A model generated the notes under the pieces. It was not told the origin of the DNA, made no database searches, and worked only from the letters and a program-made list of their open reading frames with translations. 64,000 nt of DNA from a bacterium (GTDB lineage Bacteria > Patescibacteriota > Microgenomatia > UBA1400 > PJMF01): positions 11,874 through 75,873 of the forward strand of contig JAFRKQ010000009.1 in the NCBI GenBank assembly GCA_017431625.1. Direction: 5' to 3'. Position numbers and translations under genes: made by a program. Below, one piece after another: positions 7,121 through 59,659 of this stretch. How positions within the stretch are numbered: the stretch's first letter is position 1; every line of letters begins with the position of its first letter.

Positions 7121-7519
7121 TTAGAGGGTAGGAATGGAGAGTTTGTTTGCATCGCCAAAACCAATAGTGATGACTAGGTTGAAAATAGCCCAAACGGAAG
7201 CCAAAAGCAAAATCCCAATAGCGGCCGCCAACATCCGATTACGCGCCTCTTCGGTCTTACCTTTATCCCCTTCAGAGGTGATCCAGTTGATCGCTCCCAT
7301 GATCAAATTGTACAGACACAAAAGTGCACCGGCCACAATCGCGATCGTAATGACCCGCTGGACGATAGTTTCCGCATTACTATTCGTCATGGTACTTGGC
7401 TTGACACTACCGATGGCAAACTCATCAGCTTGCACTCGCGGCATCGCTAGTCCCAGACCCAAGCTGAGTACCAGTCCACCAGTCACAATTACTCTTTGGG
7501 ATAAACTCATTTTTTTCAT
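7121..7519 (-). CDS. small two-TM secreted membrane protein, TrbC/VirB2-like pilin candidate
   Basis: Signal peptide, then two hydrophobic helices separated by the loop GDKGKTEEARN; paralog of 7736-8167. Family assignment is from topology only. Confidence 0.4.
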   Translation of the reverse strand: MKKMSLSQRVIVTGGLVLSLGLGLAMPRVQADEFAIGSVKPSTMTNSNAETIVQRVITIAIVAGALLCLYNLIMGAINWITSEGDKGKTEEARNRMLAAAIGILLLASVWAIFNLVITIGFGDANKLSIPTL

Positions 7520-7735
7520 ATCGGCCTTATTGCATCTTTATCAGATTGCTAGTTATTATAATATAAATTTTTATTGCTGTCAATATGTAATTTTTATTGA
7601 TACATAAAAATTTTTTTCATAAAATGTCAAAATAATTATTACTATAATTATGACCAGAGGCCATCAAGAATGACAATTGACAAGTGGCTCCCAGTGCCTT
7701 ATAATGATAGCAAGGCATAGATGGAAAGGTAACTG

Positions 7736-8167
7736 ATGACCAGTAAAAAAACTCAATATTGGGGAAAATTCATTCTGTTAGAATCTATTTTGGGTGGTTT
7801 TTTGATCGCGTTGGCGCGCCCCTGCGTGCCCATTGCTGGGGCGCAAAGTTCAGTCGCTTTTAGTCTCGCGCCAGCGGTTTCGCCTGCCGGTAGCATCGCT
7901 GTTGAGACCAACTCGCAAACACTTTTGAGTCGGATTATCACTTTAGTCATCGTGGTGGCGGCACTCCTTGCCCTTTATAATCTGATTATGGGCGCTATTG
8001 ACTACATTAATTCTGGTGGTGACAAGAGCAAAACTGAGGAAGCTCGCGGTCGTATCATTGCCGCTGTTATCGGGCTTTTGGTGCTCGCCTCAGTCTGGGC
8101 GATCTTTAATTTGGTCGTCACTGTGGGCTTTGGTGGTGCTAGCAACCTTAATATCCAGCAATTCTAA
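7736..8167 (+). CDS. small two-TM secreted membrane protein, TrbC/VirB2-like pilin candidate (divergent paralog of 7121-7519)
   Basis: Shared core LYNLIMGAIDYINSGGDKSKTEEARGRIIAAVIGLLVLASVWAIFNLVVTVGFG; divergent AT-rich promoter region 7520-7735. Confidence 0.4.
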   Translation: MTSKKTQYWGKFILLESILGGFLIALARPCVPIAGAQSSVAFSLAPAVSPAGSIAVETNSQTLLSRIITLVIVVAALLALYNLIMGAIDYINSGGDKSKTEEARGRIIAAVIGLLVLASVWAIFNLVVTVGFGGASNLNIQQF

Positions 8168-8228: not shown

Positions 8229-8275
8229 TTGATAATCATTATCAAATTTGCCATTAAATTGATAGTCATTATCAA
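8229..8275. promoter_or_regulatory. two Fur-box-like 7-1-7 palindromes: TTGATAATCATTATCAA (8229-8245) and TTGATAGTCATTATCAA (8259-8275)
   Basis: Perfect match to the TGATAATnATTATCA Fur 7-1-7 consensus; unusually placed between two convergent 3' ends. Confidence 0.45.
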
Positions 8276-8376: not shown

Positions 8377-10614
8377 TTAACGCTTTTGACTCCGTCTCAA
8401 AGCGACTGCTAGAAGGAGCCAGCACCAAGCGCCCCCGAAAATACCGCAACCGCCGCTACTTGAGCCCACGCCGGTAACGGGCGGATTGGTCGGTACCGAG
8501 GGGGAGTGATCATCGAACTGATCATTGTCAGTGGGTGGTTGCTCGCTGGGCGGGTCATCAGGACTGGGCTGATCATCTGTAGGCTGTTCATCACTGGGTG
8601 GCTGATTGTTGCCAGGATTATCAACTGGCGGATTATCACTGGGTGGCTGCTGGTCGTCACTAGGCTCACCAGGATCGCTGGCACTAGCCAGTCTCAAACC
8701 CCAGCCGGTGGGCAAAAGAGTCTGATCCAGCTGGTAGAGGCCGTCAATAACATCAGGGATAGCGACAGGCAGACGACCACAAAAATCAGCTTGCTGGTCA
8801 TAGAGTTTGTAGATGATCGCTGGCACCAGCGCGCCAAATTTGGGCTGATTGTCGGCAGTCTCAATCGCCGTCGACATGCCATTGGCCAGATATCCCGCCA
8901 GTAAAGCATCCGCTTCACCATAGTAAAGCCCCAGGTCATACGGCAAGTGACAACTCGCAATGATGATTTTCGCTCCTCGTGCCCGCAAAGTCTCAAGCAG
9001 CGGCAGGACAACCTTGATCTCGTCACTGTAAGGTACGGGTGAGTCTGGACTCAATTCCGACTCGTAATACACTGAGCTTAAAATCACTACTGTCTCTACC
9101 TCCTCCAACGTCGTTAACAGATTTTCGTCGTGAACATTCATGACCTTGACCGCTGCTGCTTGCTCCTGAGTTAGCTGACCGGCAGTCACTAGCTGTGCGA
9201 GACCATAGTTCACTGATCTGGTTTGTGAGTTGTAGTAGTGTAAGACCGCGACTTTTTCGTCAGGACTCAGTGGCAAGGCGTTGTCAAGATGATCGACCAG
9301 GGTGATCGCCTCCAGTGCTACTGGCCACTGAATGTCATGATGCTCTTGAGTGCTCACCGTCTGCAAAGCCGTCTGCGCTTGTGTTTGCGCCTGAACATCC
9401 GTAAGGGTGTATGGGGTCAGCAGACCGTGTTTTTGCTTGAAAGTCAAGATTCTAGTCACCGCTGCATCGAGTTTGGTCTGCAAATTAGTATCAGCACTTA
9501 CTTGAGCACCAAAAGTCTCCAGAGCCGTTTTGAAAGCCTCCACACTCGAGGGCTGATTGAGCTCTAGTGAGTAGGGCAAAATATCGACTCCTGCCTCGAG
9601 CGCAAGCTGGAGCACCTGCACAGCCGAGAAATGATGAGTGATCAGGGTGCCCAAAATTGCGTCGGCCACCACCAGACCGTCAAAACCCAATTCTTCGCGC
9701 AAAAGTCCGGTGACAACCGCTGGCGACAGCGAGGCTGGCAAGGTGTATGTCTGATTGTCGGCCGCCTGAAAGGTGCGAGTTTCCAAGCTTGGGTAGCTGG
9801 TGTGAGTCACCATCATCATATCCACCAAGCCCGCCTCAAGACTACGCTTGAAAGGCAAGAGCTCACAGGCATCCATTTGCGCTCGTGTCTTGTCGACAAT
9901 CACGGGTTGGTTGGTGTCATCGGTGTTTTCGCTAGCGCTGCCCATGCCGGGGAAATGTTTGAGACAATTGAGCACTCCTGCCTGGCGTAGACCAGACAAA
10001 TAAGCCTGAGCGTGAGCCGCGACGACATCGGGCGAATCACCAAAAGTGCGCACCACCAGAGACTCAAGACGCGGATTGGTGAGGACATCGGCTAGAGGTG
10101 CCAAATTAACATTGATCCCCAGAGCCTGGATTTCCGTACCCATCATCTGGGCGATCTCCTGAGTATGAGTGGGATTGCCAGTCGCTGCCAGTGCCATCGG
10201 GCTGATACCAGCGGTGGAGCGAGCCAAACGCGCTACCAGACCACCTTCCTGATCTACCATTATAAACAATTGGGGTCGAGTGTCCTGACTGACATTGGCC
10301 TGCTGCAACTGGTGAATCAAAAGTGTGCCGGTATCGTTGGCTGTCAGATTTTCGCCGTAAAGAATGATACCAGCAAAAGGATAAGTGCTGATCAACTGGG
10401 CTACCTCATCATTAAGGACAGTTACGTCATCAGTGGTGCCGCCATTGATTTTGCGATGGGCCGGGACGAGCAGCTGACAGATTTTTTCCTGAGTGGTCAT
10501 TGAGGATAGAATTTCCTCCGGAGTCTGGGCCGCATCCGCCGGTAGAGACGACAACAAAACGAAAGCAAGTGTTACCAATAGAATACGCTTCATGATCGTA
10601 TTTCCTCCTTGCAA
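8377..10614 (-). CDS. secreted glycoside hydrolase family 3 (NagZ-like beta-hexosaminidase/beta-glucosidase) domain protein with Pro-rich linker and a GGC + TM + basic C-terminal tail
   Basis: Signal peptide MKRILLVTLAFVLLSSLPADA; GH3 motifs DQEGGLVARL and KHFPGMGSAS...D; C-terminus GGCGIFGGAWCWLLLAVALRRSQKR. Confidence 0.75.
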   Translation of the reverse strand: MQGGNTIMKRILLVTLAFVLLSSLPADAAQTPEEILSSMTTQEKICQLLVPAHRKINGGTTDDVTVLNDEVAQLISTYPFAGIILYGENLTANDTGTLLIHQLQQANVSQDTRPQLFIMVDQEGGLVARLARSTAGISPMALAATGNPTHTQEIAQMMGTEIQALGINVNLAPLADVLTNPRLESLVVRTFGDSPDVVAAHAQAYLSGLRQAGVLNCLKHFPGMGSASENTDDTNQPVIVDKTRAQMDACELLPFKRSLEAGLVDMMMVTHTSYPSLETRTFQAADNQTYTLPASLSPAVVTGLLREELGFDGLVVADAILGTLITHHFSAVQVLQLALEAGVDILPYSLELNQPSSVEAFKTALETFGAQVSADTNLQTKLDAAVTRILTFKQKHGLLTPYTLTDVQAQTQAQTALQTVSTQEHHDIQWPVALEAITLVDHLDNALPLSPDEKVAVLHYYNSQTRSVNYGLAQLVTAGQLTQEQAAAVKVMNVHDENLLTTLEEVETVVILSSVYYESELSPDSPVPYSDEIKVVLPLLETLRARGAKIIIASCHLPYDLGLYYGEADALLAGYLANGMSTAIETADNQPKFGALVPAIIYKLYDQQADFCGRLPVAIPDVIDGLYQLDQTLLPTGWGLRLASASDPGEPSDDQQPPSDNPPVDNPGNNQPPSDEQPTDDQPSPDDPPSEQPPTDNDQFDDHSPSVPTNPPVTGVGSSSGGCGIFGGAWCWLLLAVALRRSQKR

Positions 10615-10795: not shown

Positions 10796-12664
10796 TTACG
10801 CTGCCAGACTGATGAAAAGCTGCTCCAAATCCTCACGTTGAAAATGTTTAAGAGCAGTCGACTCCAGGGCGTTACCAGCATAATACTGAGCGTATTGATC
10901 CACTTCCTTGATGTATTTTTGTTTGAGCTGTTCGATGGCCTCGATCACTTGCTCCAAAAGCTCTCCACGCCTGGATTCCTCAAGCGCTGACACGGTGCTG
11001 GTCAAATGATTAACTTCCTCAGGGGTCATTTGCGCGACAGTTTTGGACACTGGCGTTGGTTTTTCTGGCGTTGACATGATCTTTTTGGCCGCACCTCGCA
11101 CCTTTTTCCAACTGGAGCTGCCAGATTTTCCGACCCCGCTTGGCGCGACAGGAGCCTTGGGCGTAACCGACATTGATCTTGAAGCTCGCCTTCTGATTAT
11201 TGGATCCGGCAAGTGCACCTTTTGGCGTATCGAAGACGGGATAATAATATCGGGCTGACAATATTTATCCAAAAAGCTCAAGATATTAATAGGCTCACTA
11301 GTAGTAATGGCATTGGCGGGTGCTGTCGGGCTACCTTCATTTTTGAGTAAATATTGGTATGATAATTCACCTAGTTGCTCGCGCAGTTGCACCATAAAAG
11401 CAGCCAAAAGTGCTCGGGCCTGACTGTCCACAGCCGGAGCAAAGAGGCGATTATTCTCATCTCGCGATATCAGCTGACCATTTTTGTCGAGTGTGCATTC
11501 CACATCTTCATTTTCTGCTTTGTACATTACCAAAAAAAGTGCTTGTTTGAGTGCCTCGCTATCCGGCATCTGCTTGATTATGGCCATTTTTTCGTTGTCA
11601 CCGTTTGCCTGCTCAAGCAAATTATGTCGGCGTCTTTTAATCAGTGCTTGGCGAAAAAAGTCTAAAAGTTCACGATTTTTGTCGCTCGAGCGGTTGAGTG
11701 GCGAATTGGGGTCGCTCGCAGCCAGTGCATTATCAAGTTTGGCTTTTTGTGCCAGTTTATCAATAATATACGCCTGAGCGTAAAGTTCCATTAGTACTAA
11801 ATTGCCCAGGCGAAATGATTCTCGAATATAATCAAAATCTTCATTATTATTCTCCAAAAATTCTGCTTGCGCTAAGCTCTTGATTGTGCTCGCCTCAGCG
11901 CTCGCGATAAAACGCGGTAGGTTGGCAAGACCATATTTCACCCCAACATCGTCTTGTGGCTGATCAGTAAAGTCCGAAGGGCGGAAATATTTCACTTCAG
12001 TGATTTCTTGATTATTGAGCAATTGACTCAAGTGCCACAACTTACGATTGGCAAAATCTTGGGTGTACTTGGTATTGAGAGTGGCATCAATGCCAAAAGC
12101 TCGAAACTCACCATTGTCACGCTCTCCGGTTACCGTCAGACAATCCACACCGTGAGCAATATCATCATAGCGATCAACGCTAAACGTACGACAAAGCTCA
12201 TATCCCTGGGTACCTGGTTGTATGCCAGCCTTGTCATAGCTAGTGCCATCAGCCATCAAACCGTCGGCAAACCACTCTGCATCCCGCGCTTGGCGCAAAA
12301 CTAGGCTTTCTAGCAATTTGGCGACACCGCGATTGTATTCACGATCGCGACGATCAGGATACAAAGACTCATCACGAGAGAATATCTTTTCTTGCTGCTC
12401 GACATAAGCATTATCTTGATTGAGCACACCACCGGTATAACCTTGACTCATGCGACCATTGGGCATCATGACACTGACATAGTCATCCCGATCCAGGCGG
12501 TAGGTGACCTTGCCAACAATGTCCAGATCTTCATAGACCTCTAGCGCGGTTGCAGCCTCTATCAACCGTTGCATCCAGTCAGCTTTCGCTGCGCTCACAT
12601 CCACCTCAGCGCTATTGCCACTCCAATTATCCAAACGTTTGTTCTCATAGTATGCCATACTCAT
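10796..12664 (-). CDS. large hypothetical cytoplasmic protein (622 aa)
   Basis: Long ORF with no signal peptide and no recognised domain; coiled-coil C-terminus. Near-leaderless promoter TTGACA, 17 bp, TATACT ending 3 bp before the ATG (12665-12697, minus strand). Confidence 0.6.
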   Translation of the reverse strand: MSMAYYENKRLDNWSGNSAEVDVSAAKADWMQRLIEAATALEVYEDLDIVGKVTYRLDRDDYVSVMMPNGRMSQGYTGGVLNQDNAYVEQQEKIFSRDESLYPDRRDREYNRGVAKLLESLVLRQARDAEWFADGLMADGTSYDKAGIQPGTQGYELCRTFSVDRYDDIAHGVDCLTVTGERDNGEFRAFGIDATLNTKYTQDFANRKLWHLSQLLNNQEITEVKYFRPSDFTDQPQDDVGVKYGLANLPRFIASAEASTIKSLAQAEFLENNNEDFDYIRESFRLGNLVLMELYAQAYIIDKLAQKAKLDNALAASDPNSPLNRSSDKNRELLDFFRQALIKRRRHNLLEQANGDNEKMAIIKQMPDSEALKQALFLVMYKAENEDVECTLDKNGQLISRDENNRLFAPAVDSQARALLAAFMVQLREQLGELSYQYLLKNEGSPTAPANAITTSEPINILSFLDKYCQPDIIIPSSIRQKVHLPDPIIRRRASRSMSVTPKAPVAPSGVGKSGSSSWKKVRGAAKKIMSTPEKPTPVSKTVAQMTPEEVNHLTSTVSALEESRRGELLEQVIEAIEQLKQKYIKEVDQYAQYYAGNALESTALKHFQREDLEQLFISLAA

Positions 12665-12697
12665 GTGAGTATATCATTTGCATGCCACTGTGTCAAG

Positions 12698-12726
12698 AAA
12701 ACAAAAAAGCCCCTCAAAAGGGGCTA
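12698..12726 (-). terminator. rho-independent terminator for a short minus-strand transcript from the 130-bp repeat
   Basis: Minus strand reads agccccttttgaggggcttttttgtttt: GC stem plus U-run. Confidence 0.5.
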
Positions 12727-13025
12727 CACACGCCTAAAGGGTGCTGGCGGTGTCTGCGTCCTGTGGCCAAAGCCTGCCAAAACTCATCTTGACACTGGCG
12801 ACGGATACGCCGCTCAGTTTCGTGGCTATGCCTCATTTCCTCTTGCGACCAACGGTAAATTACCTCACCGTCAATAAAATCGTCATCGCTATAGTCTTCC
12901 AAATCAGTAATACGATCGTTAGTCAAAGCAAATTCCTCCTTGAAAATTACAGAACGATATATTATATCACATTTTATTGTATTTGTCAAGGGTTTATTGC
13001 TGAATTCTACTCCGAAACGCGACAC
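12714..13025 (-). CDS. small acidic ORF (GTG start inside the 130-bp repeat) or non-coding leader; doubtful
   Basis: 103-codon ORF whose 3' end overlaps the terminator hairpin; the second repeat copy does not carry the same ORF. Confidence 0.15.
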   Translation of the reverse strand: MSRFGVEFSNKPLTNTIKCDIIYRSVIFKEEFALTNDRITDLEDYSDDDFIDGEVIYRWSQEEMRHSHETERRIRRQCQDEFWQALATGRRHRQHPLGVCSPF

Positions 13026-13130
13026 CGAGGGGATAATTTAGGCAAATACCTGGGATAGCTCACATTATTACAATATAATGATTACTAAATTAGCAATTTG
13101 ATAATCATTATCAATTTGATACAATCTCAC
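13001..13130. repeat. 130-bp direct repeat, copy 1 (near-identical to 16747-16876), containing a Fur box
   Basis: tgaattctactccgaaacgcgacaccgaggggataatttaggcaaatacctgggatagctcacattattacaatataatgattactaaattagcaatttgataatcattatcaatttgatacaatctcac occurs twice. Confidence 0.9.
13098..13114. promoter_or_regulatory. Fur-box palindrome TTGATAATCATTATCAA inside repeat copy 1
   Basis: Perfect 7-1-7 Fur consensus. Confidence 0.5.
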
Positions 13131-13133
13131 TTT

Positions 13134-16100
13134 TTAACCATTTTGCGCCAAAAACTCCAGATAGCCTGTCAATTTTGGCTGTTGGTATAAATCTGTCCTG
13201 TAAGAATCACCCATACGCGTACAATAAGCATCAATAATCAGCTTCTGATCGTGAGTGTCATAAAATACTTTTTGTATTAGTTGTCCGTCGTGAATCAAAT
13301 CCATAATCACCCGACCAATATCACTAAACTGGCAACCCAAAAGCTTAGCTAGCGTTTTTTGTTGACGTGGCAAGCGATTAACTGCTTGTTCGATCACGCT
13401 TATCTGCTCAGGCGAATAGGCACTCGAGTAGGCACGAGCATAACGATAGACAGTGGCCGGTGGCATTTCACCTTGACTAACCAACAGATGACTGAGTTGA
13501 CGTAAAGAATTAAGATTGATAGCCAGGTGCGGTTCCAGTTGGCTCAAGCGTAAATAGCCATCAGGAATCTGAGTGCGTTCCGGGATTTTTTGGCGGAATG
13601 CCGTCATGATTGTTTCAATGTCAGCTGGTGGGAAAGCCAACACTGGTTGCCCATTGTGAAACATCACCTTTTTACCACTACCGATCACCCCATCAGTTTG
13701 CAACTTGTCGATCAACACCCGCACCGCCTGTGGATCGGCTTGCAAATAATCGCGGGCAATTTTGTGCGCACTCGCCCAACCCGCCAATTGCAAGGTGCTA
13801 CCCTCCAGACGCATTTGCACGTCATCATGGCTCAAGCTACTGATTTGCGCGATTACCTCTGGTGGATAACCAAAAGTATCACCGTGATTGAAATGATAGA
13901 CTTGATGCGGAATGTCAAAAGAATCCAGCAACTTAACCACCGTATCATAACTGATCCCAGCAGCCTTGGCAATCGCTGTGCGAGTGACATAGCCAGCTGG
14001 CGCAGGATCAAGCAATAAGCTATCAGCACTGTGAGTTTGCTCTGTTTTAGCATCAGTGTGTGGAAAGGTCAGGGCGTCAATCATATAGCCAGTGTAGTGA
14101 TCCTGACGATCAATAACTCTGCGGCCCAATCGTGGAAACTGTTCGATGCAAGTATTGAGCTCATTTTTGCTCAAGCGGGCAAAATCAGTAGCCGCCAGTT
14201 GCATCTGATCCAAAATCAAACTATTAAAAACATAAGTAGCATTGCCTTTTTGGTTACAGATCAAAACAAGCCGATCACCGCGATCGTTACTCCCTGGTAC
14301 CAACGGCAAACCGTGTACCTGGATCAAATAATAAGGCGCCTCCCGCAGTGAGTGGATCTCGAGTGGACTTTTGAGCACTTGCAAACTATCCGCGTTGGTA
14401 ATCTCCACCCCAAAGTGCTCGGCTAAAAGCAAACCCACCAACTTAGTACGTCTGGTAATTTCAGCTTTTTCAAAGGCCTTCGCGCTAGTGCCACCCGAGC
14501 GTAAATTGTTCACTCGTGGATCTTCATCGGTTTCAACCAAAACCCGATCAGCCACAGTGGCCACATCAAGGATATAATCCACTTGATGTGCTTTTTCTTG
14601 CAAGGCTTCAACTTTAGCCAAAGTGGTAGCCACATCGGGAATACCAAAATATTCACATACAGCATCCTCAAGGCTCTGGCTATCAATTTCAGCCGATTGT
14701 GGGAAAAGATCCAGGTATTCCTGTTTTTTGGCTTCAAGCAGCTCCAGGAATTGTTCCATCACCAGTTGCGGATATTCATTAACATTATCTTCAGTCAGCT
14801 GTAACTGAAGACTAGAGAGTGTTTCTGGCGTTGGTTCGCGAAATTGTCCTTCGGGATTTTCTGGTACAAGGATTTCTGGCGCGACTGGCGACATAGCCTC
14901 TTCCTGGTCACTACCAGACGCTAGCGACTCAATCTGCACCACTGGTGGCAACTCCGAATCAGCCTCAAAAACGCTCGCGGCCGCTTCTGCTTGTTTTTTC
15001 GCCAGCAACTGTTGTTGAGCGCGCTCATGACGTACCCGCAATTTACCCACAAAATTGGTAAATGATTCTGTTTTGAGACTTGCGCTGGCCAGACTGCGGA
15101 AAGTACCAGCACCAAATGCCTTTTCGGTGGTTCTCGCGATAGGCAGATAATTACCACTAATCATGGCATAATTCCACATTTGAGTAATTCTATCAGTGTT
15201 AATTTGCGGATCACCAGCTGCCTGAGACAAAAGCTCATTAAACCGAGCCAGTGTCTCACGTTCTTTTTGATGGTCACTTGCCCCAAGATAGCGAATCTTT
15301 TGGTGACCCTTTTTCTCCACCGGAATCAGAACGCTCGCCATAGCAAGTTTTTCGGCCACTTCAGGGTCGGGATTATTGGCCAACTGGTCACGCAACTGTT
15401 GATCAGTTTGTCGCACCGATGTCAAAAATGGGTTAGTCTGCAACTCAAATGCCATCACTTCTTGGGTCAGATTGGCTGTCAGAGCTTCTTGAATTTGTAT
15501 AAAATGACCTTGGCGAGATTGAACACGACCCGACAGATTACCACCTCGTCTTAATTGTGTGTTGGCTTTTGGCGGTGTAATCAAATCAACTCCTTGACGA
15601 TACACATATCCCACTGGTTGATTATATTCATTATTAGCATCAACCATATATGCCGTGTAGCCCATGGGTTTAACTAATGCACGAATAATTTGATAATAAA
15701 GCTCCGCTTTATTGTATCTGTGCGGATTGATACGGATCTCGATGTATTGACCGCTCTCACTAAAATACGTATTCTCGTTTTGCTCGGGCATACCAGCGTG
15801 CAATTTGTCCCAGCCACTAGAGGTATAAAAGTGAAACATCCGGTGATCAATAGCCCGCAAGGGTAATCCGTTATCGGCTCGGATGACATTAAGAGTCTCT
15901 ATTAATTGGTCAATTTGTGCTGGCCACTCGGGATCAAGGGTAGTAACATCCACCACCTCATCTGGATTAAGTTTAGCTTTTTCAGCAGCAATCTTCAATT
16001 CCGTCGGATTTAAATTATTCATGAATACACGCCGCATATCTTCAGGCAGCTTAGCAAAATGTTCAAACGTTTCTGGGCCATCTACCTGCGTATTAATTAG

Positions 16101-16700
16101 ATGATCAGTAGCCCTGAGGTGTTGATTGCGGTAAAAGGCACGTTGCTTTTTATCCACGTCGAGACTTATGTAGAATTCATCGATTGTACCTTGCGAGCGG
16201 TGTTGTGTTACCGCCTGATCCAAAACCGCCCGAGTTTCCGCAGCAATGCTCTCGCCTGGTCTCCAAGCCAAAAGCTCTTGCCAAACCGTTGGTTGTTGTA
16301 TAGCCTGAAATAAAGAGTCCTTATTAGTTACCGTCCACGGCCATTGATATAAGAGGTGCTCTAAATGTGAGAGTCGGCGATTGAAATATAGTTTGAGGTT
16401 GCCATGATGTTCACCGTTTGCTGTCAACCGAGGATTGATTTTGCAAAATTGCTCGTACAAATAATCATCAGCATACAAATGGTGGCGATGTGCCAAACCT
16501 GAAGCGATCAAAACGACCAAAAATTCACGCTCGCTTGTAAGCAAGTTATCTACTAACTGGTCAATGTTAGCTGCAGACGCCAGCTCTAAAGACGCGGGGT
16601 TTTCCTGAACTGATGGTAAATCTGTACTTTCCAGAGCATTATCATAAACAGTTGACATGTAGTCATCACTATTATGAATAGATGCATTTTCTTTCATCAT
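13134..16700 (-). CDS. very large hypothetical cytoplasmic protein (1188 aa)
   Basis: Uninterrupted ORF with no signal peptide or recognisable motif; own near-leaderless promoter TTGACA, 17 bp, TATGAT at 16703-16731; the 130-bp Fur-box repeat lies 45 bp further upstream. Confidence 0.7.
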   Translation of the reverse strand: MMKENASIHNSDDYMSTVYDNALESTDLPSVQENPASLELASAANIDQLVDNLLTSEREFLVVLIASGLAHRHHLYADDYLYEQFCKINPRLTANGEHHGNLKLYFNRRLSHLEHLLYQWPWTVTNKDSLFQAIQQPTVWQELLAWRPGESIAAETRAVLDQAVTQHRSQGTIDEFYISLDVDKKQRAFYRNQHLRATDHLINTQVDGPETFEHFAKLPEDMRRVFMNNLNPTELKIAAEKAKLNPDEVVDVTTLDPEWPAQIDQLIETLNVIRADNGLPLRAIDHRMFHFYTSSGWDKLHAGMPEQNENTYFSESGQYIEIRINPHRYNKAELYYQIIRALVKPMGYTAYMVDANNEYNQPVGYVYRQGVDLITPPKANTQLRRGGNLSGRVQSRQGHFIQIQEALTANLTQEVMAFELQTNPFLTSVRQTDQQLRDQLANNPDPEVAEKLAMASVLIPVEKKGHQKIRYLGASDHQKERETLARFNELLSQAAGDPQINTDRITQMWNYAMISGNYLPIARTTEKAFGAGTFRSLASASLKTESFTNFVGKLRVRHERAQQQLLAKKQAEAAASVFEADSELPPVVQIESLASGSDQEEAMSPVAPEILVPENPEGQFREPTPETLSSLQLQLTEDNVNEYPQLVMEQFLELLEAKKQEYLDLFPQSAEIDSQSLEDAVCEYFGIPDVATTLAKVEALQEKAHQVDYILDVATVADRVLVETDEDPRVNNLRSGGTSAKAFEKAEITRRTKLVGLLLAEHFGVEITNADSLQVLKSPLEIHSLREAPYYLIQVHGLPLVPGSNDRGDRLVLICNQKGNATYVFNSLILDQMQLAATDFARLSKNELNTCIEQFPRLGRRVIDRQDHYTGYMIDALTFPHTDAKTEQTHSADSLLLDPAPAGYVTRTAIAKAAGISYDTVVKLLDSFDIPHQVYHFNHGDTFGYPPEVIAQISSLSHDDVQMRLEGSTLQLAGWASAHKIARDYLQADPQAVRVLIDKLQTDGVIGSGKKVMFHNGQPVLAFPPADIETIMTAFRQKIPERTQIPDGYLRLSQLEPHLAINLNSLRQLSHLLVSQGEMPPATVYRYARAYSSAYSPEQISVIEQAVNRLPRQQKTLAKLLGCQFSDIGRVIMDLIHDGQLIQKVFYDTHDQKLIIDAYCTRMGDSYRTDLYQQPKLTGYLEFLAQNG

Positions 16701-16746
16701 GATATGATCATATCATGATAAGTTCATTTTGTCAAATAATTGTGGC

Positions 16747-16876
16747 TGAATTCTACTCCGAAACGCGACACCGAGGGGATAATTTAGGCAAATACCTGGG
16801 ATAGCTCACATTATTACAATATAATGATTACTAAATTAGCAATTTGATAATCATTATCAATTTGATACAATCTCAC
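16747..16876. repeat. 130-bp direct repeat, copy 2, containing a Fur box
   Basis: See copy 1; identical over about 130 bp. Confidence 0.9.
16844..16860. promoter_or_regulatory. Fur-box palindrome TTGATAATCATTATCAA inside repeat copy 2
   Basis: Perfect 7-1-7 Fur consensus. Confidence 0.5.
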
Positions 16877-16930
16877 CTTTTTGTTAAACGCGTGTTAAAC
16901 ACTCACATCTGGTTTTTGGTGACAAAATTA
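16874..16930 (+). repeat. cassette-boundary repeat R0 (5'-truncated variant): ttgttaaacgcgtgttaaacactcacatctggtttttggtgacaaaa
   Basis: Shares the tandem GTTAAACGC units and the ATCTGGTTTTTGGTGACAAAA block with R1-R9. Confidence 0.7.
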
Positions 16931-16951
16931 ATAACATTACCAATAAAAAAA

Positions 16952-19036
16952 CTATCGATTGGCCCAATACTCGCGCAATCCAGGAAGCATCGAGTCAAAT
17001 TCACTTCGATATTGCGCGATTAATTGCGTATCCAAATTACTAGTCGCAAAACGTTGCGGCGAAACTTGATTGGAACTCTCAGAATAAAAGTCTTCGCCCA
17101 TAAACGCACGCTGACCATAATCATCAAGCACAAATTGTTGATTATATTGCGGCAAGCCAAAACCACCATTACCATTGGTGGGATCAAAAATATAAATTTC
17201 TCCACCTTCGCCATTGTCATTGGGGATATTGACGCCCACATAGGCATGGCGACCTCGCACTTCACCTGTATCAGCGCGAGCGACCCCGCCCAAAGTGTAG
17301 CAATCATAACCAAGCCTTTCCATGACTGCGTGATAAACAGAGGAAAAGCCAGTGCAAATTGCTTGCTGTTCATCAAAAGCGCGCGACATCTCGTATGATT
17401 GTTGCTCTGAGGTGGGAATCGTAAATTTAATTGGTGTCTCGTAATAATTATGATCATAATTTATGAAGTGATGTAAATATTCATTAAGCAAGACACTAGT
17501 GCGAATTGTCTGAGCACGCCGCTGACTCGCCGGCACTTCACTGGCCGGCACCAGACCCAAAAGATCAATCGTATCTTGGATTCCCTCAGAGACGATGCGA
17601 TCACGTTCAGGTCTTTCACTGATAAATTGATCATAGACTTTGAGTCGCCAACTATATTCAGGATGCCCTGCCACCAACTGACGAAAAAAGGGGTCGCCAC
17701 CATAGTGACGCACGCTTTGCGATGCGGGCAAATTGCGGAAAAAGTGAGCTTGACCAGCTTGTGTCAAATAATAATGTTCCTGACCGTCGCTGCCAATTTG
17801 GCGGCGAGCCATAAGCCGAAAATATTCGCTCCCGCCAAAACGAGCTTCCACTTGCGCCGCCGGTGTCCGCGCCAAGTATTCTTCCATTGCCGAAAAATCA
17901 ACCTCTGGGGCATGTGGCAACTCGCCACCGGGGTACATATTCTCTGTGCGATCATCGATTGCTGAGAGCAATGTTGAGGTGTCATATTTAGTCGCATAAA
18001 AGTCTTCAATTCTTGAATGCGAACGGTGTGTCGAGTGATACTCCTGATAAGCCTTCACAACGGCCTGACTTAACTCATCGCGATAACGTTCGATAGCCGG
18101 GTTGCTAGTAACCAAAGGTGCCCGCCGCTTACCATCAGTCAGATAGGGAATCAAATCATCCTCATTGCCAGGCGCATGAGCCATGATCACCCGCATCGTA
18201 CTTGGGTCATAGCGGAAGTCCTCCGTTTGGAGCCAATTCTCGTCAACAGGCAACTGGTCATATTGTTCCTGGCGTTGATTGACTTGTTGGGCAGCTTCAA
18301 AAGCGCGCAAAAAACTGTGATCGCGGGCTCCGATTTGTCTTACTTGTTCAGGTGTCAAAGTATATTCCTGCTCGTGATCGCGCGCCACCACATCGCCATA
18401 AGCAAGAAAGTCAAATGTCAAAGTATCGTGATCAAAATTAAGCGAGTTAGTATCTATTTCTTCTTCCGGCTCTTCATCTGCGCGTTCGGCTGCCGCCTCC
18501 TCTTCTTGTAATTTTTGGTAAGCAGCTTTTAGGCGTTCATAAAATACAGGATCGCGTTCACAAATTCTCTTAATCTGATCAAAATTTAATTTCACATCGT
18601 AATTACGATCACCAACATAAATCTCACCGTGCAAACCAAAAACAAATTTCAAAGTGTCATGATCAAAAACTACTGTCTCCACATCCACTGTTGTCTGTTT
18701 GGGTTGTTCTGGCACTCCCAAAGATGACACTTCAGTAGATGGCGTTGGGGTACTAGCGCCACTTTCACGCAATGTTCGCAAAAACTCACGTCCACGCTGC
18801 GAGCCGCCATAGCGTTTGATAAAATCAGTCAAGCTCAAACTTTGCGTTTCGCCTGCGTATTTGATCACCACTGTCTGGCCACCATCAATACTGGATAAAT
18901 GGGCTTGCTCAAGAGGAATGGCAAAAGATGTGTTTTCCAATTCTGATTCGGGCTGCTCGTGATCGAGGGTCGGTAATTCTGAGTCAGTCGCCAAAAGACT
19001 CGGATCAAGGACGGCTGTTTCTGTTTGTGTTGACAT
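16952..19036 (-). CDS. large protein with internal ~50-aa repeats and a C-terminal transglutaminase-like cysteine-protease core
   Basis: C-terminus QAICTGFSSVYHAVMERLGYDCYTLGG...GRHAYVGV...IYIFDPTNG gives a Cys/His/Asp transglutaminase-like triad; repeats VVFDHDTLKFVFGLHGEIYVGDRNYDV and LNFDHDTLTFDFLAYGDVVARDHEQEY; promoter TTGGCA...TTATAAT at about 19040-19075 (minus). Confidence 0.65.
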   Translation of the reverse strand: MSTQTETAVLDPSLLATDSELPTLDHEQPESELENTSFAIPLEQAHLSSIDGGQTVVIKYAGETQSLSLTDFIKRYGGSQRGREFLRTLRESGASTPTPSTEVSSLGVPEQPKQTTVDVETVVFDHDTLKFVFGLHGEIYVGDRNYDVKLNFDQIKRICERDPVFYERLKAAYQKLQEEEAAAERADEEPEEEIDTNSLNFDHDTLTFDFLAYGDVVARDHEQEYTLTPEQVRQIGARDHSFLRAFEAAQQVNQRQEQYDQLPVDENWLQTEDFRYDPSTMRVIMAHAPGNEDDLIPYLTDGKRRAPLVTSNPAIERYRDELSQAVVKAYQEYHSTHRSHSRIEDFYATKYDTSTLLSAIDDRTENMYPGGELPHAPEVDFSAMEEYLARTPAAQVEARFGGSEYFRLMARRQIGSDGQEHYYLTQAGQAHFFRNLPASQSVRHYGGDPFFRQLVAGHPEYSWRLKVYDQFISERPERDRIVSEGIQDTIDLLGLVPASEVPASQRRAQTIRTSVLLNEYLHHFINYDHNYYETPIKFTIPTSEQQSYEMSRAFDEQQAICTGFSSVYHAVMERLGYDCYTLGGVARADTGEVRGRHAYVGVNIPNDNGEGGEIYIFDPTNGNGGFGLPQYNQQFVLDDYGQRAFMGEDFYSESSNQVSPQRFATSNLDTQLIAQYRSEFDSMLPGLREYWANR

Positions 19037-19217
19037 GACAAAACAATTATAACACGAAACAAAAGACTTGCCAAAATATATATGTGCCTCATACAGCCTC
19101 TTGACAAAACTGATGTCTTGTAATATACTACCAGTAGTTAGGGGACGAGTCGAGCCTCTAGTGGCTCATTAACATTACTTTTTCCTGACATAATTCCATA
19201 GAAAGAAGGCATTAGTT

Positions 19218-19871
19218 TTGTCATTGAAAATTCTCAATATTTCTGGACCATCCTGGATACAGGATCAGTCCGGCCAGAGGCTGTTTAATCGTGAGCTCAA
19301 CTCACAGACAGCCAGCATCTACTTGCGCACCCCGCCCGCTTGTCATCTCGAGTCAACACCATCACGACTGGTCTTAATCGACAGCCACCTGATCTTAGAG
19401 CCGACCACCTCCGAGCACAACGAGCGCCTGTTTCTGGTCAACCTGGCAGCAATCGGAGAACGCGATGACGATAATTACAACTACGACAAAGTCAATGACT
19501 TTATATTGGCCGAGGATTACTGTCGGCTTGTGGAGCACTGGTTTGTCGAGCGAATGATCGGCATCAACAAAAAAGGTAGGCAGCACTGTTTGTCCGTTCT
19601 CATTAAAGCCCTCACCAACGAAGCTCGGGTGGCGTTTTTCTTTAGCACCGAAGGCTGCAAACACATTCTGCTAGCATCCGATGTTCGCGGTATCCGCACT
19701 CATCATTTTGACACTGCGGTTTTTAGTCAGGACTTCATCTATGATCGGGTCCTCAAAGAAGTATATGACTGGACGAGTTTTCGTCTCGATGAGCTGAGCG
19801 TTTCCTCCAAAACTCCCATGACATATCTCGACAAAATAGTATCCAAACTGCGCCGGTCGCTGGGTCTTTAA
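19218..19871 (+). CDS. hypothetical protein (TTG start per ORF track; true start uncertain)
   Basis: 217-aa ORF preceded by a TTGACA, 17 bp, TAATAT promoter at 19110-19138 and an AGAAGG RBS. Confidence 0.45.
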   Translation: MSLKILNISGPSWIQDQSGQRLFNRELNSQTASIYLRTPPACHLESTPSRLVLIDSHLILEPTTSEHNERLFLVNLAAIGERDDDNYNYDKVNDFILAEDYCRLVEHWFVERMIGINKKGRQHCLSVLIKALTNEARVAFFFSTEGCKHILLASDVRGIRTHHFDTAVFSQDFIYDRVLKEVYDWTSFRLDELSVSSKTPMTYLDKIVSKLRRSLGL

Positions 19872-21447: not shown

Positions 21448-21708
21448 TTGTGTTATAATATAGCGGCAATGATAAAATTGTCAGGAACGCAGTCTATGAG
21501 TTATGACGCTTTAGTACAAGACATTAGCACTCTTCCCAAGGAGTATTTTCCCGAAGTGGCTCATTTTCTTGAGCTGCTTAAATTTAAGGTGATGGTACAA
21601 ACACACCAACAACCATCTTCATTGCGTCAACTGGGTGGCTTTGAAGGCCAAATAAAAATAGCTGATGATTTTGATGACACCCCAACAGGTTTTGAGGACT
21701 ATTTATAA
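21448..21708 (+). CDS. VapB-like antitoxin (DUF2281-like) of a type II TA pair
   Basis: Small ORF ending ...GGFEGQIKIADDFDDTPTGFEDYL whose stop overlaps the vapC start (TAATG); true start probably an internal ATG (MSYDALVQDISTLP...). Confidence 0.55.
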   Translation: MCYNIAAMIKLSGTQSMSYDALVQDISTLPKEYFPEVAHFLELLKFKVMVQTHQQPSSLRQLGGFEGQIKIADDFDDTPTGFEDYL

Positions 21709-46179: not shown

Positions 46180-46255
<76 letters not shown>

Positions 46256-50009: not shown

Positions 50010-51401
50010 TCACGAGACACTTGGTGCCGGAATGCGAATATTTTGGATATCCTCCAGCTCACAACCAAGCTCACTCAAGACACTTTTGAGCTCAAAAAGG
50101 TCAGAATAATAGTGTGGCGCGGGTTGATTACGTACCTTAACGCTAATCACTTGGCCCTGTGGCAAATTGATGCAGGCCCGGAGTAGTTTTTGCTTAATTT
50201 CCGGGTTTTTGCTATTGGCAATATAAAAACCTTTGCCATTGGGTGCCGCCACTTCAAAAAGACCATTGAGATCATCTGCCCTGCTAGCGTCAATGCCCAG
50301 CTCGCCACCATCATCAATAAATGTTGGTGCAGTCGTGTTTTCTTGAGCAACGACCGATACTGACAGCGTATCTGGCGTAACCACTGACACCGACGTGCTA
50401 GCGCTCGACTCAAGCCCAGGCGTCAAGTCATCCGCCAGCAAAGACTCGGCTTGGGGGAAATAAATCTCCAGCGAGCGCAAATTCTGACTTTTGACAATTT
50501 GCCCCGGCTGCGCCTGCCAAGTGCGGACACAGCCTCGATGGGCATCACGAGCATTAGTTACATCGTTGACCACGATCGTCACACCAGCGGGCACACACAA
50601 GTCACGTTCCGGACAAGGAATATAATAGCAGCCCGGAGTTTTGATCAGCGCCAGAGTGGTAATCAGACATAAGTCCTCTTGAGTGACCAGATCTTGACTA
50701 GCCACTACCCGTGCTTGATAATCACCCAGACGCGAAAAGCGGATCATCGAGCCAGTTTTGGTCATGACTGGTAGTACTGGTGTCGGAGTCACTTTTGGCG
50801 TTGGAGCCACTTTGACTGGCGGCTTTTTGACAAAAATTTTATACTCATGTCCCGCTCGTAGCTGATCATTAGCCTGAAGGGTGCGATTTTTGTCAGTGCG
50901 ATCAATAATTGTCAATTGTTTGATATCAAAGCTACCGTCCTGAGTGATCACGCCGATCCAGCAGCCGTGGTCGGGCAAAAAGCGCCAGCCAGGCCTAAAA
51001 ATCTTCTCTGGATCAAAACCAGCACCCAAAGTCTGCGCTGGCGGTTGCGGCTTAGCGATTGTGGGCGTGGCGCCTCGTTTTCTAAGCGTCACCTCACTAC
51101 CTATTTTGACCGCCCAACCATTGGGAACGACTTTGGAGATGCCATCCTTGTGCGTCGTCACTTCTATCGCCTCGGTGGTAATGATCCGTTTGGTAAGCCA
51201 ACCACGCACCGAGCCATCAGGATCGGGCTTAGCGTCGCGCAAAACTCGAGCAAAATCTACCTTACCTGTCAAAGTAATTGTCGCTACAGGAGCTTTGGCC
51301 TTCTTGCTTTTGTTAGCTTTCGCCTCGGCCACCTGTGTCCAACCCAAGATCGCTACCATTATGAAAACAACCAGTATTTTTGTATCATTAATCCTTTTCA
51401 T
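50010..51401 (-). CDS. secreted hypothetical protein (paralog of 58114-59442)
   Basis: Start MKRINDTKILVVFIMVAILGW after RBS GGAGAG; shares GWRFLPDHGCWIGVITQDGSFDIKQLTIIDRT with the GWRYVAEHQCWIGQVNKAYSFDNTQLTVIDRT of the paralog. Confidence 0.6.
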   Translation of the reverse strand: MKRINDTKILVVFIMVAILGWTQVAEAKANKSKKAKAPVATITLTGKVDFARVLRDAKPDPDGSVRGWLTKRIITTEAIEVTTHKDGISKVVPNGWAVKIGSEVTLRKRGATPTIAKPQPPAQTLGAGFDPEKIFRPGWRFLPDHGCWIGVITQDGSFDIKQLTIIDRTDKNRTLQANDQLRAGHEYKIFVKKPPVKVAPTPKVTPTPVLPVMTKTGSMIRFSRLGDYQARVVASQDLVTQEDLCLITTLALIKTPGCYYIPCPERDLCVPAGVTIVVNDVTNARDAHRGCVRTWQAQPGQIVKSQNLRSLEIYFPQAESLLADDLTPGLESSASTSVSVVTPDTLSVSVVAQENTTAPTFIDDGGELGIDASRADDLNGLFEVAAPNGKGFYIANSKNPEIKQKLLRACINLPQGQVISVKVRNQPAPHYYSDLFELKSVLSELGCELEDIQNIRIPAPSVS

Positions 51402-51608
51402 TTTACTTCTCTCCTTACGTATTAAAGTTGATCTATCACTGCTACTTACCACTAAAATGGCAAGGGGTTATCGTTCAGGCTCAGACGTAGGCCTTTTGGT
51501 GGGTTATGATTTGTTTGACTGACATCTTAAAGAGCTTACCAACCACCAGCCAGCGGTTTGCTCGTATTAATGCCGGCAAATCGCCTTCTGATCGTCTTAG
51601 CTACGCAT

Positions 51609-58113: not shown

Positions 58114-59442
58114 TTACGGGAAAAAGTAGACATTGCGAGTGCCAGCTGCGACCAGCGTATTCCCCATCGCGTCTTGTTGCAAAGCGATCCATCGGCCATC
58201 TTTGTTTTTAGCCTTGACGGTAATTCCTTTGCCCACCACCATATCTTGTTCTAGCTGAGCATAGACAGTGCAATGCTCATTTTGCTTGACGATTTTACCC
58301 AGATCGTTATTCAAATGATATTGCGAGTTGACGAAAGTGGGTTTGGTGGTGACTGGAACTGGGGTGGCCACTGGTTCAGGAATGGCGGCTACAGCGGGAG
58401 TGGGAGTGGAAGTGGGCGCTGCCGCATAATATATTCCCTGATGGGTGTTGCTAAAATCGGTGATGACGAAATCGTCAGCCAAGAAAGCAATTTTGGCCAT
58501 TGATCCCTTTTTGACCGTCTCACCAGGGCGGCACAGCCTTTCGCGCAATTTGCTATCGTAGACCGTGACTGACATATCGCCGGAAACAACAAAATCCCGT
58601 TCGACGTTGTAAGTCATAAACTCGATCAGACTGATGCTGTTGCGGATAAATTCTGTACCAATCAGACACAGGTCCAGCTCGTCTTTGATCCAACCGCTAT
58701 CAACTACTTTGACACGGCAGTCAGCCAAACGCTCGAACTGAATCATAAACTGAGAGTTGCACAACACCACCGAGCGATCCGCTGAGGTAAATACCGGTGC
58801 GGGAGCGACTGGAGCCATTTTTTTCTTGAGGAAAAACTTGTACTCTCTACCTTTTTGCAGGCGGGTACCGGCCTCAAGAGTCTGGCCAGTCGTCCGATCA
58901 ATGACCGTCAGCTGTGTGTTGTCAAAACTGTATGCCTTATTGACCTGACCGATCCAGCACTGATGCTCGGCTACATAGCGCCAACCACGCCCAAAAACTT
59001 TCTCTGGCTGGAAACTGGCTGTAAGCAGATTTTTCTCGGTCTGCTGGGTTGCAGATGTGGCCTTTGGACTGGTAGCTGGTGTCGTCACTTCAGGGCGGGC
59101 GCGACCATTAAAATTGATCACGACTTTGGTTCCCTTCTTGACAACATCACCGGTCTCCAAGCGTATGCCTTCTGTTTGACCCCTTTTGAAAGCCAGCAGC
59201 GTAATGCCATCAGCTATCTGAACTTTCAGCTTGAGATAACCTGATAAACTCCCGTCAGGCAGGGACTCCAAGCTATTGAGAATTTTGGAGTAGTCTGTCT
59301 GAGCATTGATAACCACTATCTGTTCTTTTTTGGTGGCTTTGGGAGTCTTTTTGGCGCGTTTAGCGGCCCAAGCTTCCTGATTCCCCATACCAACGAGCGC
59401 AATGATGATAATTATAATGATTGTATTAATAGTTTTCTTCAT
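58114..59442 (-). CDS. secreted hypothetical protein (paralog of 50010-51401)
   Basis: Start MKKTINTIIIIIIIALVGMG after RBS GGAG; about 210-nt 5' leader downstream of consensus promoter 59660-59688. Confidence 0.6.
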   Translation of the reverse strand: MKKTINTIIIIIIIALVGMGNQEAWAAKRAKKTPKATKKEQIVVINAQTDYSKILNSLESLPDGSLSGYLKLKVQIADGITLLAFKRGQTEGIRLETGDVVKKGTKVVINFNGRARPEVTTPATSPKATSATQQTEKNLLTASFQPEKVFGRGWRYVAEHQCWIGQVNKAYSFDNTQLTVIDRTTGQTLEAGTRLQKGREYKFFLKKKMAPVAPAPVFTSADRSVVLCNSQFMIQFERLADCRVKVVDSGWIKDELDLCLIGTEFIRNSISLIEFMTYNVERDFVVSGDMSVTVYDSKLRERLCRPGETVKKGSMAKIAFLADDFVITDFSNTHQGIYYAAAPTSTPTPAVAAIPEPVATPVPVTTKPTFVNSQYHLNNDLGKIVKQNEHCTVYAQLEQDMVVGKGITVKAKNKDGRWIALQQDAMGNTLVAAGTRNVYFFP

Positions 59443-59659
59443 GATAATCTTCTCCTTTTTGGGTTGTGAGTTTATAGTGGACACGCTAGCGTAATTGCCG
59501 GCGCGATTGAACCATAATCATTACCGTCGCGCGCACGCTTCGGTGGGGTAAATCGGTGCTCTTAGATGATTTCACTTTATCTTAAAGAGCTGCCTTCAAG
59601 CACACCGCCGATCACAACCCGATGGTTGTTGGCAGGTTATGCTTGTGTTAGCTACGGTT

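Follow-up and report, generated by a model that had tools for sequence, protein, structure and literature searches.

Three adjacent large genes on a patescibacterial contig: a member of a predicted winged-helix family, a putative transglutaminase-like protein, and an orphan

Gene layout and apparent transcription units

The stretch of DNA analyzed here (64,000 nucleotides, positions 11,874 to 75,873 of contig JAFRKQ010000009.1 in the patescibacterial assembly GCA_017431625.1) is referred to below as the window, and all coordinates are those of the window. It contains three large open reading frames (ORFs) of 622, 1188, and 694 amino acids (aa), labeled A, B, and C, which, as noted in the initial annotation, adjoin each other and are co-oriented, all on the minus strand. 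That annotation took the three, as a block of large orphan proteins, to be candidate effector or toxin modules. The reading that we favor, with moderate confidence, is that A, B, and C are neighboring, functionally unrelated genes, each with its own promoter. Judging from sequence comparisons, B is a divergent, extended member of an uncharacterized family of predicted DNA-binding proteins. The products of all three genes had been described as lacking signal peptides, which holds true: in a hydropathy scan with a 19-residue window, none of them shows a segment that looks like a signal sequence or a transmembrane helix, while the same scan does flag the neighboring pilin, GH3, and MscL proteins. 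The GC content of A, B, and C (44 to 47%) is like that of the core genome, as opposed to 35 to 42% in the repeat-bounded island described below. The genes and their presumed expression signals are as follows.

10796..12664, minus strand: gene A, 622 aa, an orphan with a likely leaderless start at Met1 or Met3
12668..12696, minus strand: promoter-like sequence for A (TTGACA-17-TATACT, with TG), its -10 box ending 3 nt short of the ATG
12708..12725, minus strand: hairpin resembling an intrinsic terminator (AGCCCCTTTTGAGGGGCT, then a T run) that separates the small ORF from A
12714..12926, minus strand: 70-aa ORF between B and A that had been overlooked; it starts with TTG and has an AGGAGG ribosome-binding site
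13134..16700, minus strand: gene B, 1188 aa, an N-terminally extended member of a family that combines an N-domain with tandem winged helices
16707..16735, minus strand: promoter-like sequence for B (TTGACA-17-TATGAT, with TG), its -10 box ending 6 nt short of the ATG
16952..19036, minus strand: gene C, 694 aa, with a single homologue, P0002
19046..19074, minus strand: promoter-like sequence for C (TTGGCA-17-TATAAT, with TG), its -10 box ending 9 nt short of the ATG

The promoter-like sites of A, B, and C each match the TTGACA-17-TATAAT consensus at 11 of 12 positions and carry an upstream TG. Since their -10 boxes end only 3, 6, and 9 nt, respectively, before the start codons, leaderless or near-leaderless mRNAs are predicted for these genes. 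A leaderless arrangement, with a consensus -10 box no more than 12 nt from the start codon, is also found at the island genes that start at 21448, 31904, 36502, and 40325; the core genes of the window have leaders of 30 to 190 nt. Highly similar promoter regions of the TTGACAAAAAGCC-TATAATATGATATAAT type are common to several genes (at 12938, 19093, 51586, 59637, and 62297).

The 70-aa ORF between B and A has an acidic N-terminus and a basic, Arg/His-rich C-terminus, and its promoter-like site at 12961-12989 matches the consensus at all 12 positions. It shows no significant match to any family and is independently called as a gene on L002, a second metagenome contig of the same strain (99.9% identical, with 17 single-nucleotide polymorphisms [SNPs] in 16.4 kb). 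Given three separate promoters, a terminator, and this additional small gene, A, B, and C probably do not form a single operon, and we infer from these signals that the block consists of at least four apparent transcription units.

Gene B and its protein family

In a word-index homologue search, the B protein finds no match, not even the identical protein encoded on L002. An exhaustive HMMER search (phmmer) of 1.84 billion representative sequences at E<=1e-3 recovers 369 relatives, 195 of them at E<=1e-10. All 369 align only to residues ~616 to 1188 of B, and most of these alignments begin near the relative's own N-terminus. With a family profile built from 85 sequences (hmmsearch), residues 617 to 1171 of B match profile positions 8 to 555 at 389.5 bits (E=6e-118), and nothing else in the window matches this profile. 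The same alignment defines the family plan, an N-domain of ~270 aa followed by 3 to 6 tandem winged-helix units of ~70 aa each. The center of the N-domain carries a hairpin motif, (I/L)(L/V)VCDEEGNATYVF, and the repeat unit follows the pattern APEG-LS...A..LG......I..L...LG....Y-F......YSPEQQ..I...L...G. Pfam and NCBIfam models such as HTH_11, GntR, HTH_36, and MarR are matched by the relatives, but only within the repeats. The statement that the proteins, apart from the C-terminus of C, have no recognizable domains stands for A, which matches no library, and fails for B, whose residues 617 to 1171 belong to this winged-helix family. Four regions can be distinguished in B.

16233..16595, minus strand: residues 36-156, common only to the closest relative, P0004 (34% identity, tblastn E=4e-10)
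14856..16232, minus strand: residues 157-615, with no detectable relative in any search
14031..14828, minus strand: residues 625-890, the conserved N-domain, with LICNQKGNATYVF in B in place of LVCDEEGNATYVF in the family
13377..14015, minus strand: residues 896-1108, winged helix-turn-helix repeats (units 896-954, 975-1037, and 1044-1108)

A hidden Markov model of the single repeat that was built without B scores the three B units at 30, 15, and 20 bits; a possible fourth repeat at residues 1116-1138 is doubtful and not significant. The eight N-domain residues that are invariant in a 26-sequence alignment are all kept in B (E678, R786, Y790, R810, C815, G819, N820, and K845). The acidic CDEEGN hairpin, the second Glu of which is present in at least 90% of family members, is absent from both B and P0004, which read CNQKGN instead. 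Should the acidic residues of CDEEGN serve in catalysis or metal binding, B may be an inactivated or repurposed form. P0004, which is 43% identical to B, also shares with it an 11-residue insertion; the N-terminal extension is ~600 aa long in B and ~216 aa long in P0004.

An AlphaFold model of B computed with the family alignment has a pLDDT of 85 and a pTM of 0.69, with the blocks of the N-domain mostly above 90. It consists of a helical bundle, an alpha/beta sheet domain, and units of a helix-turn-helix (HTH) plus a beta-hairpin, i.e., of winged-helix topology. The N-domain gives no consistent Pfam match in any of 26 members, corresponds to no NCBIfam model, and has no sequence relative in PDB by profile search. 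Foldseek comparison of the whole B model with PDB returns nothing at E<=1e-3, and comparison with BFVD returns only weak matches to small HTH proteins of the MerR/excisionase type. The possibility that the N-domain is a PD-(D/E)xK, Toprim, or GIY-YIG nuclease was considered and set aside after motif inspection only, as the spacing and the predicted strand order do not fit.

We know of no published function for this unnamed family. B aligns with it from end to end of the N-domain (LVCDEEGNATYVF) plus winged-helix arrangement, keeping the eight invariant residues and three repeats, and differs from it in the N-terminal extension, the 11-residue insertion, the CNQKGN sequence, and the direct repeats of 175 nt that flank the gene. 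The nearest described systems are regulators of the Mga/AtxA, MerR/excisionase, and GntR/HTH_11 types, whose HTH models are matched by the repeats of the relatives; the weak fold matches of the B model are to AtxA, MerR-family, and phage excisionase-type HTH proteins. However, these matches are below threshold or local, effector-binding and PRD domains are missing, and 3 to 6 near-identical units behind an uncharacterized N-domain are not the architecture of Mga/AtxA-, MerR-, or GntR-type regulators. By its sequence, B, a predicted cytoplasmic protein, would bind DNA via the winged-helix array, and the N-domain together with the private extension would supply a lineage-specific regulatory or DNA-processing function.

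In a scan of one genome per species, B's family is found at 29 loci, 21 of which are labeled as Patescibacteria (Saccharibacteria, Shapiro-, Nomura-, Paceibacteria/Paceibacterota, Kerfeld-, Magasanik-, Kaiser-, Moranbacteria, and Minisyncoccia). Five more are on metagenome-assembled genomes labeled as Gammaproteobacteria, Pseudomonadales, or Coriobacteriia, including the one that carries P0004, and three are unclassified. We suspect that the labels of the non-patescibacterial assemblies, which are represented by contigs L006/L004, L009, L011, L013, and L033, are wrong. No conserved neighbor of the family was found across the 29 loci. The flanking genes vary and are mostly housekeeping ones, encoding TsaD, ribosomal protein S1, trigger factor, and HisRS, as well as a SpoU methylase, a disulfide reductase, and a Na/H exchanger. 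There are no relatives in viral contigs. The variable housekeeping surroundings and the lack of viral relatives point to a stand-alone chromosomal gene and not to a mobile toxin. The initial annotation named conserved synteny with core metabolism as a finding that would speak against its proposal; the B family goes part of the way, with a housekeeping context and no fixed synteny.

Genes C and A

By its sequence features, C is a rare cytoplasmic protein. Its only homologue in a word-index search of 5.8 billion clustered proteins is P0002, which is 40% identical over 70% of the length, and residues ~400 to 690 are the best-conserved part. Scans of genomes, metagenomes, and viral contigs with the C alignment reveal no further homologue, and tblastn of the C core against plasmids and phages finds nothing. 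An aldose-epimerase gene precedes the P0002 gene on that strand at a distance of 33 nt, and HD, S1, and ParB genes are nearby. Two segments of C can be delineated.

17177..17452, minus strand: residues 529-620, transglutaminase-like core with Cys561, His597, and Asp618, matched by PF01841 and NF045980
18260..18691, minus strand: residues ~116-259, two tandem ~65-aa units (FDHDTL...), Smith-Waterman score 105, z=17.6

The proposal of a transglutaminase or cysteine-protease core at the C-terminus of C is supported at a near-threshold level. The Pfam domain Transglut_core (PF01841) matches residues 529-606 with E=1.4e-4 and 22.5 bits, which is below the gathering cutoff of 23, and NCBIfam NF045980 (MAG6410 transglutaminase-related) matches residues 553-606 with E=0.011; the predicted structure is of too low quality to confirm the fold. 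The triad of Cys561 (ICTGFSS), His597 (RHAY), and Asp618 (IFDPT) is invariant between C and P0002. A low-confidence model of C shows a helix (residues 563-574) that starts from the Cys and strands 599-605 and 611-616 with the His and the Asp, an order compatible with a papain-like plan. As in the PF01841 superfamily, C has the elements G/I-C-x2-F...LG-x...G...H-A-Y-V...F-D-P-T in the right order and with the right spacing. In contrast to PF01841 members, the ~530 residues before its core match no known family, the 130-residue stretch from 400 to 530 is more conserved than the core itself, and C has no signal peptide or lipobox, unlike many bacterial transglutaminase-like proteins. We regard a transglutaminase/papain-like fold of the C-terminal domain as likely; with the predicted triad, C would act on protein substrates as a cysteine protease, a transglutaminase, or a deamidase.

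The two internal repeats reported for C are confirmed and are somewhat longer than the ~50 aa first given: residues ~116-185 and ~193-259, ~65 aa each, align with a Smith-Waterman score of 105 (z=17.6 versus shuffled sequences). In the last 220 codons of C, 7 of the 8 SNPs that distinguish it from its counterpart on L002 are synonymous and 1 is nonsynonymous, an excess consistent with purifying selection.

The product of gene A has no match in Pfam, NCBIfam, PHROG, PADLOC, or PDB; its only database match in a word-index search is itself, and nothing similar is found in plasmids and phages (tblastn) or in viral contigs. Judging from these searches, A appears to be a genuine orphan. In favor of A being a real gene are the length of its ORF and its consensus promoter. 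All three SNPs between A and its counterpart on L002 are nonsynonymous and conservative (E>D, I>L, and F>L). Two possible leads for this protein were not sustained. Homology of its last ~50 residues to the first N-domain helices of B (E=0.004 in BLAST within the trio) is not established, as A scores 5.4 bits against the B-family profile compared to 4.4 bits for the best of 500 shuffled sequences. The P-loop-like APSGVGKS at residue 507 falls in a Pro/Ser/Lys-rich stretch, has no supporting profile match, and was treated as a chance occurrence.

Repeats, Fur-box palindromes, and competing explanations

The intergenic regions on both sides of B contain repeated elements, which are listed here with the ORF that diverges from C.

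12961..13135: direct repeat copy DR_A, 175 nt, directly downstream of the B stop codon and upstream of the 70-aa ORF, with a Fur box at 13098-13114
16707..16881: direct repeat copy DR_B (175 nt), which precedes B and abuts the first island repeat, with a Fur box at 16844-16860
16882..16930, plus strand: island repeat copy 1, TGTTAAACGCG twice and then ...GGTGACAAAA, between the upstream repeat of B and the stop codon of C
16882, 20043, 21320, 22126, 23904, 26695, 29427/29438, 31394, 33111, 34461, and 46350, plus strand: copies of the island repeat
19218-19871, plus strand: 217-aa orphan ORF that diverges from C and has a promoter of its own (TTGACA-17-TATACT, 19101-19129)

DR_A and DR_B are 90% identical, are in direct orientation, and flank B exactly. 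The island repeat is ~100 nt long and is present in eleven copies, all on the plus strand, within positions 16882-46398. It consists of a promoter-like TTGATA/TAGACA...TACAAT sequence plus two (once three) tandem 11-mers, TGTTAAACGCG; all 12 tandem 11-mer matches are on the plus strand, compared to 0.03 expected. The repeats separate units of 1 to 3 genes with 35 to 42% GC, including Fic/RhuM, VapC-like, and three YhcG PDDEXK paralogues, and the array ends beside tRNA-His (46180-46254). The right ends of the 175-nt repeats align with the left arm of the island repeat, and DR_B continues into copy 1 at 16882. The 175-nt repeats thus appear to be variants of the island-repeat left arm, so that B and C are each bracketed by one repeat family. 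This agrees with the earlier placement of C inside a repeat-bounded island, as C is behind the first island-repeat copy; by the same criterion, B is in the island too. The 217-aa ORF has no homologue in any fetched locus and is at most a conceivable partner or inhibitor of C. An integron attC site was considered for the island repeat and rejected: its core sites (two GTTAAAC units) are direct and not inverted, and no integrase is seen in the window. Domain scans of the proteins of the window find no tyrosine recombinase domain, and a search of JGI metagenomes for the 11-mer pair yields two unrelated matches only and no related repeat.

The palindrome TTGATAATCATTATCAA, which we take to be a Bacillus subtilis-type 7-1-7 Fur box, TGATAATnATTATCA, occurs four times in the window compared to 0.05 expected, and all four sites fall within 8.2 to 16.9 kb. 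The exact 15-bp consensus is found at 8230-8244, 13099-13113, and 16845-16859; the fourth site is a near match. The initial annotation placed a Fur-box repeat in two of the genes; the box is real, but it is intergenic, within the 175-nt repeat, and not inside the genes. Located ~110 nt upstream of the -35 elements of the sense promoters of B and of the small ORF, the boxes do not overlap these promoters and are unlikely to act by classical promoter occlusion. The boxes at 13098 and 16844 also form the -35 element of a plus-strand TTGATA-16-TACAAT promoter-like site with TG, and these plus-strand sites would drive transcription toward the 3' ends of B and C, antisense to both genes. The promoter region of C itself has no Fur box. 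Compared to the Bacillus-type Fur box, the 15-bp consensus is the same, and the differences are the location off the sense promoters and the presence of two of the boxes inside a duplicated 175-nt element. Because B and the unit of the small ORF and A share this element, some common metal-responsive input to the two, which would be conveyed by the duplicated 175-nt sequence, is plausible. The other two palindromes form a tandem pair at 8229-8275, in the gap where a pilin gene that ends at 8167 and a GH3 gene that ends at 8377 converge. A terminator-like hairpin is found on either side of the pair, and no obvious promoter or ORF accompanies it.

These observations allow several explanations other than a set of unrelated neighbors. 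B and C (the latter with the 217-aa ORF) could be individually acquired cargo, each unit bounded by one island-repeat copy, of a repeat-punctuated cassette array that begins at 12961, with A and/or the 70-aa ORF at its edge serving the array, e.g., in recombination or regulation. This would account for the exact flanking of B by the 175-nt repeats and the run of DR_B into island copy 1, for the uniform orientation of the 11-mers, for the division of the island into small units with toxin-antitoxin-like, Fic/RhuM, and PDDEXK genes up to tRNA-His, and for B being a divergent, extended, paralogue-like form. We nevertheless consider it unlikely, as A, B, and C have core-like GC content, no recombinase domain is detected in A, the small ORF, or any other part of the window, the direct core sites do not make an integron attC, DR_A has no 11-mers, and no related form of the repeat was found in JGI metagenomes. 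A bolder version, in which the N-domain of B is a new nucleic-acid-processing fold on a winged-helix tether, B and C are mobile units of an undescribed non-integron cassette array, the repeats carry a promoter and 11-mer protein-binding sites, and A and/or the 70-aa ORF are array-specific edge factors, seems to us very improbable. Alternatively, A, B, and C might be linked by regulation and not by function, as an iron-responsive regulon in which Fur on four boxes controls B, the small ORF and A, and the pilin/GH3 junction, possibly through plus-strand promoters that overlap the boxes and would yield antisense RNAs to B and C at their 3' ends. The clustering of four perfect or near-perfect TGATAATnATTATCA boxes within 8.2 to 16.9 kb and the use of two of them as -35 elements favor such control, which we judge quite improbable because of the distance of the boxes from the sense promoters, the lack of a box at C, the lack of a visible Fur gene in the window, and the option that the motif belongs to another regulator.

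Large hypothetical proteins are abundant in genomes of the Candidate Phyla Radiation (CPR). Most CPR-enriched protein families are without annotation (PMC6744442), and the type IV secretion system (T4SS) of Saccharibacteria, which has multiple pilin subunits, has been proposed to export proteins (PMC10633639). A, B, and C could be viewed as substrates that an epibiotic bacterium delivers by a contact-dependent or type IV secretion route, with the cysteine-enzyme core of C acting on host proteins. Two T4SS-type pilin genes (PF18895; 7121-7519 and 7736-8167) are within 3 to 9 kb, the three proteins are large and have no signal peptides, A and C are nearly unique to the lineage, and C has an enzyme-like Cys-His-Asp core. 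However, no other component of such a system, including the ATPase or the coupling protein, is recognized in the window, proximity is the only link of the pilin genes to A, B, and C, and conserved linkage of these genes to a secretion machine is not observed. Scans of Pfam, NCBIfam, PHROG, and PADLOC find no toxin, trafficking (LXG, WXG, Rhs, or PT-type), immunity, or defense domains in A, B, C, or the 217-aa and 70-aa ORFs, and no secretion-signal domain in A, B, or C; we know of no universal sequence signal of T4SS substrates. P0002 is encoded among ParB, S1, HD, and aldose-epimerase genes, relatives of A, B, and C do not occur together in any fetched locus, and B belongs to a chromosomal, mostly patescibacterial, predicted DNA-binding family with housekeeping neighbors. 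The effector or toxin reading therefore appears to lack support for B and is rather unlikely for the three genes together, and the single block of such modules seen in the initial annotation dissolves into separate apparent units. It is scarcely credible, finally, that A and the private N-terminal half of B are decaying or chance ORFs. A has no homologue and only nonsynonymous SNPs (3 of 3), and B residues 157-615 have no relative, but 622 and 1188 unbroken codons in DNA of 46% GC are far beyond chance, the composition is globular-like, the three substitutions in A are conservative, both start codons have consensus promoters, and B residues 36-156 are conserved in P0004.

The ties among A, B, and C thus come down to adjacency, a common promoter style, and the duplicated Fur-box element of B and the small-ORF/A unit. 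The following points weigh against our view of them as unrelated, separately expressed genes with the assignments given above. C, B, and A may be co-transcribed by read-through. The Fur boxes at ~110 nt above the sense -35 elements are not in a classical repressor position, no Fur-family gene is seen in the 64-kb window, the only part of the genome at hand, and the regulator that binds the box-like motif could be other than Fur. A canonical CDEEGN copy of B's family may be present elsewhere in the genome, beyond these 64 kb. C scores 0.5 bit under the Pfam cutoff, P0002 has no Pfam match at E<=1, and no PDB sequence relative of C is found; the PDB searches with A, C, the C-terminal profile of C, and the N-domain profile of B return nothing or only coiled-coil artifacts. 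The AlphaFold model of C, made from a two-sequence alignment, has a pLDDT of 48.8 and is unusable for fold assignment, and the output of a Foldseek search of PDB with it is meaningless. T4SS pilin genes are located 3 to 9 kb away, and secretion of A or C is possible.

Several other features of the window deserve mention. The minus-strand gene at 7121-7519, called on contig L002, probably encodes a second T4SS-type pilin (PF18895), and the listed plus-strand ORF of 157 aa at 7134-7607 is likely spurious; perfect (12/12) divergent promoters are found at 7583-7555 (minus strand) and 7677-7705 (plus strand). In the GH3 gene (8377-10614), codon 371 is changed from CAA to the nonsense codon TAA on L002, which splits the secreted glycosidase into two genes and looks like polymorphic pseudogenization. 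Two paralogous secreted orphan proteins, 31% identical, are encoded at 50010-51452 and 58114-59484.

C and A would matter only if they were proven to be host-directed factors; nothing in this analysis shows that. For B, the difference between no relatives in the word-index search and 369 in the HMMER search illustrates that "orphan" calls based on fast searches only are unsafe. In the family thus revealed, the N-domain has neither a curated model nor a detectable solved relative; Arg, Tyr, Cys, Asn, and Lys are among its invariant residues, and a winged-helix array is joined to it in every case. On these sequence features, the family represents a candidate lineage-specific DNA-handling protein of the Patescibacteria, organisms whose chromosome biology is almost unknown.

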